Shown here piece by piece: positions 1-4,021 of a stretch of 4,142 nt of DNA. Within the stretch, counting starts at the first letter, position 1. The number at the start of each line of letters is the position of its first letter. The translations under genes and the position numbers were made by a program. The notes beneath the pieces are model-generated. The model was given only the letters and a program-made list of their open reading frames with translations, searched no databases and was not told the DNA's origin. Source of the stretch: a virus (taxonomy: Duplodnaviria; Heunggongvirae; Uroviricota; Caudoviricetes); IMG/VR virus record IMGVR_UViG_2547132415_000009, positions 1 through 4,142 of that record, one strand, 5' to 3'.

Positions 1-110
1 TCATCGGTTCGTCTGAGAATTACGTGCAACTGCGCACGCGACACCCGGAGACAACGGCTGACTAAGCTTACTCCCCATCCCCGGGCAATAAGGGCGCGTG
101 CGCTATCCAC
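1..110 (-). CDS. insD: IS2 transposase OrfB (InsD), N-terminal 36 codons only; rest lies beyond the window edge
   Basis: Minus-strand translation from GTG at 110: [37 protein letters not shown], the N-terminus of IS2 InsD. It is in the -1 frame relative to InsC and overlaps its 3' end. Confidence 0.88.
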
Positions 111-433
111 TTTTTTGCACGCCCGTATTCAACGGCTTCTTTAAGGAGTTCATTTTCCATCGTTTTTTTGCCGAGCAGGCGCTGGAGTTCTTTAATCTGC
201 TTCATGGCAGCAGCAAGTTCAGAGGCAGGAACGACCTGCTCTCCTGCGGCCACAGCAGTAAGACTTCCCTCCTGGTATTGCTTGCGCCAGAGAAATAACT
301 GGCTGGCTGCCACACCGTGTTGCCGGGCAACAAGGGAGACCGTCATTCCCGGTTCAAAACTCTGCTGAACAATAGCGATCTTTTCCTGTGTAGTACGCCG
401 TCTGCGTTTCTCCGGTCCTAAGACATCAATCAT
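68..433 (-). CDS. insC: IS2 transposase OrfA (InsC), 121 aa
   Basis: Translation [53 protein letters not shown]... matches IS2 InsC as I recall it. The ORF-track start at 478 is a spurious N-terminal extension into the terminal repeat; the ATG at 433 is the authentic start. Confidence 0.93.
110..116 (-). other. A6G slippery heptamer (A AAA AAG in the InsC frame) for programmed -1 frameshifting to make the InsCD fusion transposase
   Basis: Minus strand reads GTGCAAAAAAGTGG. In the InsC frame the codons are GCA AAA AAG, immediately before the InsC/InsD overlap. This is the classic IS3-family frameshift arrangement. Confidence 0.7.
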
Positions 434-483
434 CTGCTCTCCAATGACTAGTCTAAAAACTAGTATTAAGACTATCACTTATT

Positions 484-524
484 TAAGTGATATTGGTTGT
501 CTGGAGATTCAGGGGGCCAGTCTA
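484..524 (-). repeat. IS2 left terminal inverted repeat (IRL, about 41 bp) at the element/prophage boundary
   Basis: The terminal TAGACTGG... motif ends exactly at 524. The adjacent left-end region (441-500) contains the palindromes ACTAGT...ACTAGT and TCACTTAAATAAGTGA typical of the IS2 left end. The exact inner boundary of the IR is approximate. Confidence 0.8.
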
Positions 525-1268
525 AACGCCGATCTCACACGTAACCAGTAAAGGAAAACTAGTTCTCCAATTTAGCTCGCCAATTACAGGCATTCGCTCA
601 CTACAGCTTATCCAACTATCCGGAGTTACCGGATAGTTGCGCATTGCGACCTTTAATGCCTCATAGAAGCAACCTTTCAGATTGTTGAACTGACGCCCAT
701 TAAGAGGACCGTGTTCAGTAAGCATGTTGCGTAATTTCCATGCCGCGTCGTTTACTTCGTTGGATGACAGGGGAGGCAACTTGTAAGTTTGGCTTACAGG
801 TTCGGCACCATGAAGCATGGCGCCGCTCCGCTCTATGCCATCCAGCGCGATTCGCAGTGCCTGAATTGTGGTAGAGCTATCGTTTGGGGCTATTCCATAT
901 CGCTCGAATACAGCTAAATGGTTGCGCATAATCTCAGGCGTAAGCTCTTTGTAAGCATAAGCAAGAGGCTCTGATGCATTATCCGGCACAACCGACGCAG
1001 GCGCGGCAGCATAAACAGGAATAACGTCAGCTTGCTCTTTATTGCTTTCATCCGTTAAAGCCCAGAATAATTTCCCGGCCGGATGTTTGAAAATATAAGC
1101 AACTGGATCTGCTTCCAGCGATGCCAGTGCAATTTTAAATGCGGTAAGTATGTTGTTAACCACACCTATTTCGAATGCTATTTCACTACATACAAACGAT
1201 TTATCGTCTATTATCGACTCAATTCCGGTAATCGTGTTCTGTAACCATTCTTTGGTAAGAGTATTCAT
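522..1268 (-). CDS. Hypothetical prophage accessory protein, 248 aa as read; 3' end truncated by the IS2 insertion (stop codon supplied by the IS2 terminus)
   Basis: Long ORF with ATG at 1268, 2 nt after the stop of the upstream 63-aa ORF. The final codons GGC GTT TAG use 522-524, which are the terminal TAG... nucleotides of IS2, so the native C-terminus is missing. No family recognised with confidence. Confidence 0.6.
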   Translation of the reverse strand: MNTLTKEWLQNTITGIESIIDDKSFVCSEIAFEIGVVNNILTAFKIALASLEADPVAYIFKHPAGKLFWALTDESNKEQADVIPVYAAAPASVVPDNASEPLAYAYKELTPEIMRNHLAVFERYGIAPNDSSTTIQALRIALDGIERSGAMLHGAEPVSQTYKLPPLSSNEVNDAAWKLRNMLTEHGPLNGRQFNNLKGCFYEALKVAMRNYPVTPDSWISCSERMPVIGELNWRTSFPLLVTCEIGV

Positions 1269-1270
1269 AA

Positions 1271-1462
1271 CTATTTCACTTTAATCTCAATATTTCGCAG
1301 CTTTAGCTCTACTGGCAGGTCTGACTTTCCTGTTAACGCTAATGCGAGATTTTCAGGAGTAATGAGAGCAGTTATTGTTTTCCCTATTGCCAGACGAATA
1401 ATCATTCGTATCTCGCGATCGTCACATGCTCCCGGTCGAACAATTGATATTTGTCCGATCAT
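1271..1462 (-). CDS. Hypothetical small protein, 63 aa (MIGQISIVRPGACDDREIRMIIRLAIGKTITALITPENLALALTGKSDLPVELKLRNIEIKVK)
   Basis: ATG at 1462 is preceded by AAAGGAGAG (GGAG 6 nt upstream), and that Shine-Dalgarno overlaps the TGA stop of the upstream 217-aa ORF. The ORF-track start at 1492 looks like a spurious extension. No homology recognised. Confidence 0.5.
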   Translation of the reverse strand: MIGQISIVRPGACDDREIRMIIRLAIGKTITALITPENLALALTGKSDLPVELKLRNIEIKVK

Positions 1463-1463
1463 C

Positions 1464-2117
1464 TCACTCTCCTTTGATGCGAATGCCAGCAAGCCAGTTT
1501 CTTATGCCGATATATTCAGCGTTCCTGAAACCGCTTTTTACATATATAAATGGCAAGCGAAGATTGTGACCATTGGCTGCCAGGTAGTCTTTACAACCCT
1601 GTTCGGTGAAACAGCAGGTAACGAATTCATCAATATCTTTCACAGCAACGCGCCGCCATTTTTCTGGTGGTTCCCGAAAGTTTTCATGAAGTAGTTCGAG
1701 ACGACGACTTTGGAGTTTATTGGCTTCATTGCTATCTTCATCAACCCAGACAATCCGGTCATAGTCATAATCAGCATCAACAACAATTTCGCGCTTTTGA
1801 TACACACAAAACATAGGGTCTGACGTTATTCGATTATCCTGTGTTCGAATGTTTTCACCGATGATGCCAAACGAATCTGGCGTAGGTTTTGTCTGTAACT
1901 CTTCGATACGTTCAGCCAGCGCCGCGCACTTGGCCTCAAGGTTATCAATCGTGATTCCAGCAGAACGACACTCCCGCAACGCCGTTTCCAGTTTTGATTC
2001 AAGTTCACCGAACTTACGGACAAGATATTCAGCGTTTGTTTCGTTAACCTTTAAATCTCGTGGGATGCATTTACCTTTCAGAAATCCATCCATCTCAATT
2101 AGTGACATTTGTTTCAT
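1464..2117 (-). CDS. Hypothetical protein, 217 aa; predicted coiled-coil N-terminal half and acidic, Cys-containing C-terminal half
   Basis: Longest unassigned ORF. The ATG at 2117 overlaps the TGA stop of the upstream 54-aa ORF (ATGA) and has GGAG 9 nt upstream. The ORF-track start at 2135 is a GTG with no Shine-Dalgarno. The helical heptad-like stretch [44 protein letters not shown] is judged by eye. Confidence 0.6.
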
Positions 2118-2278
2118 TTCTTCCCACTCCGCCACATCGCATTCAGATATTTGTTTTGATTCACTGACGGAAAAGAATTTCTCTTAAGCAATTCCTCTCT
2201 CGATGGCATTGGCTTTACGCGTTGGCGAATAATCATTTCTGCCGGAAGAATGCCGGGATTGTATGCAAGTCCTCTCAT
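2114..2278 (-). CDS. Hypothetical small basic protein, 54 aa ([54 protein letters not shown])
   Basis: ATG at 2278 has a strong Shine-Dalgarno (TGAGGAA, 6-nt spacer) that overlaps the TGA stop of the upstream 97-aa ORF. Its own stop overlaps the start of the 217-aa ORF. The ORF track shows a longer 104-aa form from 2428, which would overlap the 97-aa gene out of frame; I prefer the short form. Confidence 0.45.
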
Positions 2279-2288
2279 GGTAAATTCC

Positions 2289-2582
2289 TCAGTCATTACT
2301 GATAGCGCCATAACGTGAGCGGTAATTACGCAGGCGCGGGTCAATTTCAGGGAAGTGGGTATATGTGGCTTTGCGGAATGGTCGGATTGATGTCTGGTAA
2401 ATTCGCTCGCGTTCTTCTTTCTCTGCAAGCCATATACAGTGGCGAAATTCCTTTTCCTCTTTCGTTTCCTGCGGTAGAGACATTATTCGGTCGTAGTTTT
2501 TTCTGAATTTATCCAGCACCTCCGATACGGAATTGCCGGAACAGCGGCGCGGGTCATCCGCACCATACAGAGGCGCTGGCAT
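2289..2582 (-). CDS. Hypothetical highly charged protein, 97 aa
   Basis: ATG at 2582 is preceded by TAAGGAT (AAGGA, 7-nt spacer) in the 23-nt gap after the SSB-like gene. Translation [63 protein letters not shown]... No homology recognised. Confidence 0.55.
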
Positions 2583-2605
2583 AATTAAATCCTTATTTTT
2601 CTAAA

Positions 2606-2989
2606 TCAGAATGGGATGGAATCGTCGTATACAGGAGTGTTCTGCTGGTTACTACTTTGCTGCTGCGGGCCATTTCCTGAAGCTGCAAATCCAATCTTTG
2701 CATTCAGTAATTCAAGAGTGATTGATTGACCATTTTGCCCCTGATAAACATCAACCCTGATGTTTTCTCCGGTAATTTCCACAATGCCACCTTCAGCAAG
2801 AACACTACGGTAGTAATCCGCTTGCGCTCCCGGCTTGGCAAATACAACGGCGCTGTAGTTTGTCCATTCTTTCTTTTTTGTCTGGCGATCGTAATACTGA
2901 ACGCCAGCACGGATGTTGAATCCGATATTTTCCCCGGCCTGAAACTCTCTTGCGGGCTTGTTTAGTCTTACAGTAATCGAATGTGCCAT
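2606..2989 (-). CDS. Phage single-stranded-DNA-binding-like protein (lambda Ea10-like), 127 aa, with acidic C-terminal tip ...VYDDSIPF
   Basis: The C-terminus ends in DDSIPF, closely resembling the conserved SSB C-terminal protein-interaction tip (DDDIPF). The start ATG overlaps the erf stop (TAATG at 2987-2991). The ORF-track N-terminal extension to 3079 runs inside erf and is rejected. The Ea10 family assignment is from memory. Confidence 0.65.
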   Translation of the reverse strand: MAHSITVRLNKPAREFQAGENIGFNIRAGVQYYDRQTKKKEWTNYSAVVFAKPGAQADYYRSVLAEGGIVEITGENIRVDVYQGQNGQSITLELLNAKIGFAASGNGPQQQSSNQQNTPVYDDSIPF

Positions 2990-3594
2990 TAAGCGGCCGC
3001 CCCTTCTAATTCGTCTCGTCTGATGTTGTAAACGTCCTGCGCTTTGTGCTGCTCCGGTGTGCCTTCGAGCATCTTCCACGCTTTGGCGAACGCCTGTTTA
3101 AGCTCTTCCACGGTGTTTTTCTGCAATGCTGCGTCAGTGAATGCTTTTAGAACCTGTTCAGGTGTAGGTGATGGTTTTGATTGCTTTGCTGCTGCGTTCT
3201 GCTGATGTTTATGCTCGTCGGTATCTGCATCTTTCGCATCATCAATGCCGAACAAACCATTGAGGCAATACTTGCGTGCATAAGAGCTTGTAGCTCCAGT
3301 AACTTGTGCAGAATCCATTCCTTTCTTGCTTTCTTCCTCTCGTGCAAGAGCGGTTGCCGTATGACTGTTTTCGCCATCGGTAATAGTTGCCGTGGCTTTC
3401 ACGTAATACCGATCACCAATCAACACAACTTCATCGCTGATTGATAAAAACAGGCCATTCAGTAACGGCTTAACGCCTTCAAGAATGTCTTCGCAGCTTC
3501 TGTATTTATATTTGCCGAATGAGTTGTACTGATTCTTTGGCGCGTTCAGATTCTCCTGAATAGCTGCCAGTCTTGCGTAAAATTCTTTGCTCAT
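2989..3594 (-). CDS. erf: Erf-family single-strand annealing protein (essential recombination function, P22 Erf-like), 201 aa
   Basis: Translation MSKEFYARLAAIQENLNAPKNQYNSFGKYKYRSCEDILEGVKPLLNGLFLSISDEVVLIGDRYYVKATATITDGENSH...ATSSYARKYCLNGLFGIDDAKDADT matches the P22 Erf N-terminal domain as I recall it. The start is placed at the ATG at 3594 (MSKEF...); the ORF-track start at 3624 is a TTG extension. Confidence 0.85.
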   Translation of the reverse strand: MSKEFYARLAAIQENLNAPKNQYNSFGKYKYRSCEDILEGVKPLLNGLFLSISDEVVLIGDRYYVKATATITDGENSHTATALAREEESKKGMDSAQVTGATSSYARKYCLNGLFGIDDAKDADTDEHKHQQNAAAKQSKPSPTPEQVLKAFTDAALQKNTVEELKQAFAKAWKMLEGTPEQHKAQDVYNIRRDELEGAAA

Positions 3595-3683
3595 ATGTTT
3601 GTTCTCAGAATGGACATGGCCCAAGGAAATAACGCTGATTTAATACTTCAGTCTTTGCCGCATTTAAAAATACGCGAACACCT

Positions 3684-3854
3684 TCACGATCTCCCTTCTG
3701 GCGATACATTAACGCCTGCTGCGTGTACATGCGTCTCTGTAACTTGCTCTCCTTCACTGTGGTTGCAAGTGACATGCATATCTCCTTCGTTACCGATTAA
3801 TTCTTTCATCTGACGAATGAATTCTTCGTCTGACCAGTTATCTGTAAAACTCAT
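3684..3854 (-). CDS. Hypothetical small acidic protein, 56 aa, with a His/Cys cluster (MHVTCNHSEGEQVTETHVH); sits where kil/arf lie in P22
   Basis: ATG at 3854 overlaps the TGA stop of the cIII-like ORF (ATGA), with AAGG 6 nt upstream. The ORF-track start at 3884 is a TTG extension. No confident homology. Confidence 0.45.
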   Translation of the reverse strand: MSFTDNWSDEEFIRQMKELIGNEGDMHVTCNHSEGEQVTETHVHAAGVNVSPEGRS

Positions 3855-4021
3855 GGACGGCCTTGTTGTTTCAAAATATCCCAAAGCTTTTCGAGCAAAC
3901 TTTTCATTCTTGGTTGTTTAAAGTCTGCTCCGGTTAAAATATTTTTTCGTGAATGCTGTACCGATAAAATCGGGTTGAAAGGGCGAACCGATGCCGCCCC
4001 TGCAATAGCGAACTGTTGCAT
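3851..4021 (-). CDS. cIII-like small regulator, 56 aa (MQQFAIAGAASVRPFNPILSVQHSRKNILTGADFKQPRMKSLLEKLWDILKQQGRP); putative FtsH-inhibitor family
   Basis: Not in the supplied ORF track; found by hand translation. Strong Shine-Dalgarno AAGGAG with a 6-nt spacer before the ATG at 4021. The N-terminal MQ-FAIAG and C-terminal KLWDILKQQGRP resemble lambda CIII (MQYAIAG... KRLIDILNQPGVP) as I remember it, and the length is similar. Confidence 0.5.
   Translation of the reverse strand: MQQFAIAGAASVRPFNPILSVQHSRKNILTGADFKQPRMKSLLEKLWDILKQQGRP

Follow-up and report, generated by a model that had tools for sequence, protein, structure and literature searches.

Why does a gene in the early region of a P22-like prophage end on the very first bases of an insertion sequence, and what, if anything, does this ending tell us about the state of the prophage? 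The stretch of DNA in which we have studied this question, referred to below as the window, is the whole of the 4142-bp contig AQEI01000032.1 from the draft assembly GCA_000354915.1 of E. coli 174750. The phage genes in it belong to an early-left operon of the P22-like (Lederbergvirus-type) kind, in which cIII, arf, erf, ssb, abc2 and ea genes share one orientation. Upstream of the interrupted gene the operon is made up as follows.

1271..4021, minus strand: the upstream operon genes as a whole block (Pfam, PHROGs, gene calls)
1271-1462, minus strand: ORF of 63 aa (gene call)
1464-2117, minus strand: ea-like ORF of 217 aa (gene call)
2114-2278, minus strand: DUF2737 gene (Pfam)
2289-2582, minus strand: abc2 (Pfam Anti-RecBCD_p2, 212.7 bits; PHROGs)
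2606-2989, minus strand: ssb-like gene (PHROGs)
2989-3594, minus strand: erf (Pfam ERF, 151.6 bits; PHROGs)
3605-3775, minus strand: arf-like gene (PHROGs)
3851-4021, minus strand: cIII-like gene (PHROGs)

One member of this block deserves a separate remark. The ssb-like gene at 2606-2989, a short phage gene sitting between erf and abc2, encodes a protein of 127 aa without a Pfam match and with a match of 96 bits to the SSB family phrog_44, and its C-terminus, ...VYDDSIPF, resembles the acidic tip of bacterial SSB (DDDIPF).

The other end of the window is occupied by the mobile element, whose identity is not in doubt. We compared window 1-524 with the last 524 nt of the complete 1331-bp IS2 carried by the P1-like phage phi456 (OR339795.1) and found 0 mismatches, an agreement over 524 nt which cannot be due to chance. 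The phi456 copy has ACTGG on both flanks, that is, a 5-bp target-site duplication, and this fixes the terminus of the element, ...GGGGGCCAGTCTA, at window 524; on the minus strand, window 517-524 spells the left terminus, TAGACTGG.... The left terminus, the internal sequence, orfA, the A6G motif and the start of orfB all identify the element as IS2 (IS3 family, IS2 group), of which E. coli genomes contain thousands of matches. Its remaining ~807 nt, including IRR, lie beyond the start of the window; the right-end sequence on the IRR side is ...GGGGCAAATCCA, and the right-end string is also given as GGAAATATAGGGGCAAATCCA. IRL and IRR form an imperfect inverted repeat which aligns once IRL is shifted by 1 nt, and we take IRL to extend over ~42 bp of the window. 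The orfB frame, that of InsD, opens at the slippery motif AAAAAAG (116-110), the A AAA AAG signal for the -1 frameshift of IS2, and it is cut by the start of the window after ~35 codons. Both reading frames of IS2, orfA and orfB, are co-directional with the phage operon. The features of the element and of the junction are listed here.

1..524, minus strand: left 524 nt of IS2 (524/524 nt against the phi456 IS2; IS2 nt 1 is window 524)
1..116, minus strand: A AAA AAG motif (116-110) and first ~35 codons of orfB (motif position, frame-0 translation)
68..433, minus strand: complete IS2 orfA, InsC-type, 121 aa (stop at 68-70; Pfam HTH_Tnp_1, 70.2 bits; gene call)
483..524, minus strand: IS2 IRL, outermost bases TAGACTGGCCCCC (IRL/IRR comparison)
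522..524, minus strand: TAG stop of the truncated gene, identical with nt 1-3 of IS2 IRL (direct reading and phi456 IS2 terminus)
522..1268, minus strand: truncated mosaic EaA-like/DUF551 gene, 248 aa, EMX34088.1 / WP_001743083.1 (alignment to intact relatives)
525..529, no strand: AACGC (GCGTT in gene orientation), predicted copy of the 5-bp IS2 duplication (adjoins the IS2 terminus)
525..617, minus strand: retained N-terminal ~31 residues of DUF551 (residues 218-248, WISCSERMPVIGELNWRTSFPLLVTCEIGV) (Pfam and intact homologues)

At the junction itself, window 511-530 reads agggggccag tctaaacgcc, and the stretch 511-540 continues ...aacgcc gatctcacac. The 248-aa ORF (522-1268, minus strand) ends ...LLVTCEIGV; window 525-527, read on the minus strand, gives its last sense codon, GTT, and between ...TCEIGV and TAG no residues are added to the phage protein. 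It had been proposed in a first-pass annotation of the window that IS2 truncates this ORF and that the stop codon is donated by the IS2 terminus, and both proposals are borne out: the TAG at 522-524 consists of IS2 nt 1-3, with the boundary fixed by the phi456 copy, while homologues read through the site and the homology breaks exactly at 525. In a three-way DNA alignment, the DNA that uninterrupted homologues have in common with the window begins at 525: from there to the right the sequences are nearly identical, and to the left, where the window carries IS2, they show no similarity. Likewise, the matches in phages HF4s, VSe13, Emek, N7 and HK140 all begin at query base 96, which is window 525.

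What does the gene look like where no IS2 is present? Alignment to IS-free related prophages, a comparison suggested by the first-pass annotation, shows that it continues for another 54 or 57 codons. The chromosome of E. coli 2017.15.01CC (L001) is 97% identical in DNA to window 525-1134 and runs past the site as ...GCTGGTAT/AACGCCGATC... (a slash marks the cut here and below). Its intact ORF of 327 aa reads ...LITCEIGV/IPAYYGFVSVNGNKHYGFMESLKYGDDNGNHPQTNEYGLISNVTHWMPLPEPPL up to the stop, with 54 further codons, so that the protein around and beyond the cut is ...CEIGV/IPAYYGF...PLPEPPL. The EaA protein of phage HF4s (QOI58130.1) extends 57 codons past ...CEIGV (CEIGV/IPAYYGF...PPQEVK). We found no homologue with a natural stop at this site; L001 and the HF4s EaA both continue in frame. 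The intact form of the interrupted gene is predicted to be ~302 aa long. Its combination of the N-terminus seen in the window with a DUF551 module of the L001/HF4s type was not found in the collections that we searched.

The missing part falls within the DUF551 domain (PF04448). Pfam finds the domain in the L001 protein at residues 243-326 (43.5 bits) and in a second relative (L002) at residues 218-292 (63 bits), whereas the truncated ORF reaches 16 bits, below the cut-off of 22, and aligns only to profile positions 1-10. The window ORF lacks the distal 54-57 residues of the ~84-residue domain, including its conserved ...THWMPLPEPP end, and is thus a truncated derivative of a DUF551 member and not an intact one. 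DUF551 is also the annotation carried by its closest relatives over the N-terminal part. With about two thirds missing, the domain is probably inactive. We know of no function for DUF551 or for the PHROG families matched by this gene. The EMX34088.1 entry, named "hypothetical / sb31 domain protein" and 248 aa long, is best regarded as a fragment of a pseudogene and not as a distinct protein. The EaA-like family is, moreover, strongly mosaic: the same N-terminal part of ~217 residues occurs with at least four different C-terminal modules, and when window 525-1268 is compared with L001, L002, P0043 and P0045 the breakpoints of DNA homology lie at about window 575-589.

Does the absence of everything distal to the junction mean that the prophage has decayed? 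The contig breaks off 524 nt into IS2, a multi-copy element, and a contig end at such a place is a draft assembler's inability to cross the repeat. It is because of this assembly break that the 3' end of the gene and xis/int are absent from the window, and their absence carries no information on decay or crypticity. The earlier description of the downstream genes as displaced or lost from the window is correct as far as the window goes; its further reading, that the prophage may be decayed or cryptic, is not supported, as the whole draft contig ends inside IS2. Nor does the designation of the interrupted gene as the last prophage gene hold. Beyond the DUF551 gene, relatives have just one to a few small genes (Eag/Lar-like) and then xis/TorI and int, and by this comparison the interrupted gene appears to be near the int-proximal end of the prophage without being its last gene. 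We therefore suggest that the end of this contig be annotated as a repeat-induced assembly break and not as a prophage end or a sign of decay. P22-like and lambdoid phages can do without the accessory genes of this region, so an insertion here does not by itself imply a defective prophage. A polar effect of IS2 on the expression of downstream xis/int is possible.

We consider it quite probable that the junction arose by a simple insertion of IS2 into the DUF551 part of an EaA-like gene in a P22-like prophage of E. coli 174750. The element of 1331 bp would have transposed into the C-terminal, DUF551-coding part of the mosaic gene, which lies at the distal end of the early-left (PL-type) operon. 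With IS2 lying in the same direction as the operon, ribosomes translating the EaA-like gene meet the terminal TAG in frame, and the protein therefore ends ...TCEIGV without any foreign residues. Such an insertion would be expected to have duplicated AACGC, and the remnant of the gene, together with the small ea/Lar-like genes, xis and int, would lie beyond the other end of IS2 on another contig. AACGC adjoins the IS2 terminus and is present as a single copy in uninterrupted homologues (...GGTAT/AACGCCGATC); by our analysis the first-pass annotation appears to have chosen the right pentamer for the predicted 5-bp flank duplication. After IS2, simple insertion predicts IRR followed by GCGTT-ATACC(A/T)GCTTATTACGGC..., so that the far junction should read ...AAATCCA-GCGTT-ATACC(A/T)GCTTATTACGGCTTTGTGAG....

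Could the junction instead be the edge of a larger change, namely an IS2-associated deletion, an inversion or an IS2-IS2 recombination, with the prophage a damaged remnant? In that event the gene would have lost its 3' end, by deletion or by displacement, along with part or the whole of the distal prophage (xis/int, the attachment site). It is common for prophages of E. coli and Shigella to decay through IS activity, and this background speaks for such a history, as do the failure of the protein searches described below to detect a gene remnant and the end of the window sequence at IS2 nt 524. However, a short remnant that is not called as a gene would be missed under simple insertion too, and a break at the canonical IS2 terminus fits any product of IS2 transposition and discriminates in neither direction. 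Simple insertion with a 5-bp duplication is the usual outcome for IS2, as the phi456 copy illustrates, and we regard deletion or rearrangement as unlikely here.

Two further readings deny that the gene was interrupted at all. In the first, IS2 was misjoined to the phage contig during assembly, and the gene is intact in the real genome. The window, as a short contig of a draft assembly that stops within a multi-copy repeat, is the kind of sequence in which one might suspect this. The exact 248-aa protein occurs, by exact-protein look-up, only on AQEI01000032.1 and on one contig of the Logan assembly of run SRR488683, and that separate assembly (L004, window 495-2052) also crosses the junction, reaching 30 nt into IS2. 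SRR488683 is assumed to come from the same strain as the window; if it does, the junction is not a chimera of one assembler. Moreover, a misjoin through shared sequence would have to fall at some arbitrary point inside IS2, whereas the join observed falls precisely on base 1 of the element, and near the site there is no resemblance between the IS2 end and the intact gene by which the two could have been collapsed. An assembly artefact is hence very improbable. The idea that the gene simply ends here, with IS2 adjoining a complete short gene, has nothing in its favour beyond the presence of a stop codon. This stop is IS2 sequence, the DUF551 domain is incomplete, and every relative with the 525-640 sequence has a further 54-57 codons in frame; the read-through in L001 and HF4s, the DUF551 scores and the three-way alignment together led us to reject a native stop, the chance of which we put at next to nothing.

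Simple insertion makes predictions for the far end of IS2, and we looked for that end in several collections. An exact 28-mer scan for the junction gave 0 matches in GTDB species-representative genomes, and in a junction-centred megablast against phages, plasmids and 5,426 complete E. coli genomes no match spanned the junction. Among 5.8 billion proteins we found none corresponding to the predicted far-junction remnant ORF (IRR-encoded MIT.VWKYRGKSS joined to VIPAYYGF...); this query, with a GTG start inside IRR, returned only ordinary DUF551 proteins at no more than 87% query coverage, and no member of the ten best clusters was from strain 174750. These negative results for the remnant protein are weak, as a remnant of ~55-68 aa may not be called as a gene. 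A search with the last 80 residues found no other protein ending ...CEIGV, a result that carries no weight, since the query's own full-length cluster was not returned either. Some proteins that looked like the remnant were set aside. P0010 (54 aa, MPAYYGF...) is an I-to-M variant with ATG at that codon and comes from other strains. P0068, P0070 and P0019, which start at the V, I or P of VIPAYY, are contig-edge fragments of other strains in different downstream contexts. The 54-aa DUF551 cluster of P0010 also lists P0092, an unrelated 379-aa Logan protein of peptidase/creatinase-type look, apparently a clustering error in the protein collection.

Two side observations concern DUF551 modules elsewhere. 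In a different strain, a homologous module carries an independent IS2 (L007, contig JBGHZS010000019.1, GCA_045844615.1), whose IRR end, ...GGGGCAAATCCA, fills the first 127 nt of the contig and is flanked by AGCTG (L007 1-210). Contigs of at least four other draft assemblies, in three downstream contexts, start within ~12 nt of the nucleotide at which the window gene is cut (L010 1-13, L011 1-13, L012 1-10 and L013 1-12; protein P0087). The first bases of two of them, L010 and L011, are exactly GCGTT, which on the opposite strand is the pentamer predicted to be duplicated. Is it possible that the DUF551 module around CEIGV/IPAYY is hit repeatedly by mobile DNA, IS2 included, or that it marks a recombination junction? 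If so, a widespread phage accessory gene would contain a small hot spot of insertion or recombination. We find this improbable: relative to the cut site the contigs break at -12, 0, +3 and +8 nt, a scatter which suggests assembler breaks at a paralogous DUF551 boundary rather than IS insertions.

The finding amounts to one strain-specific IS2 allele in a non-essential phage accessory gene and, as such, matters little. IS insertions in prophage accessory genes are commonplace, and this one is ordinary and of an already known kind, as a comparison with known systems makes clear. The IS2 of phi456 is the same as that of the window over 524 nt, including the terminus TAGACTGG..., orfA and the A6G motif, but it lies in a different target, and it is seen complete and with its 5-bp duplication, whereas the window reveals the left part alone. 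The L007 element has struck the same type of DUF551 module, in a prophage and next to Lar-like, int-proximal genes. Its site, however, is ~85 bp upstream of the one in the window, at ...WIS/CSERMP, and only its IRR side is visible; it represents a separate event from the insertion described here. The interrupted gene itself combines two known kinds of relative. Proteins of the WP_039022220.1 type are nearly identical to it over residues 1-217, with 99.3% DNA identity from window 575 onward, while residues 218-248 and the underlying DNA (525-574 and onward) match the DUF551 module of the L001/HF4s type. EaA, Eaa and DUF551 accessory proteins of P22-like and lambdoid phages are encoded at the same position of the early-left operon as the window gene, but these relatives score as DUF551, and the window gene, without its last 54-57 residues, does not.
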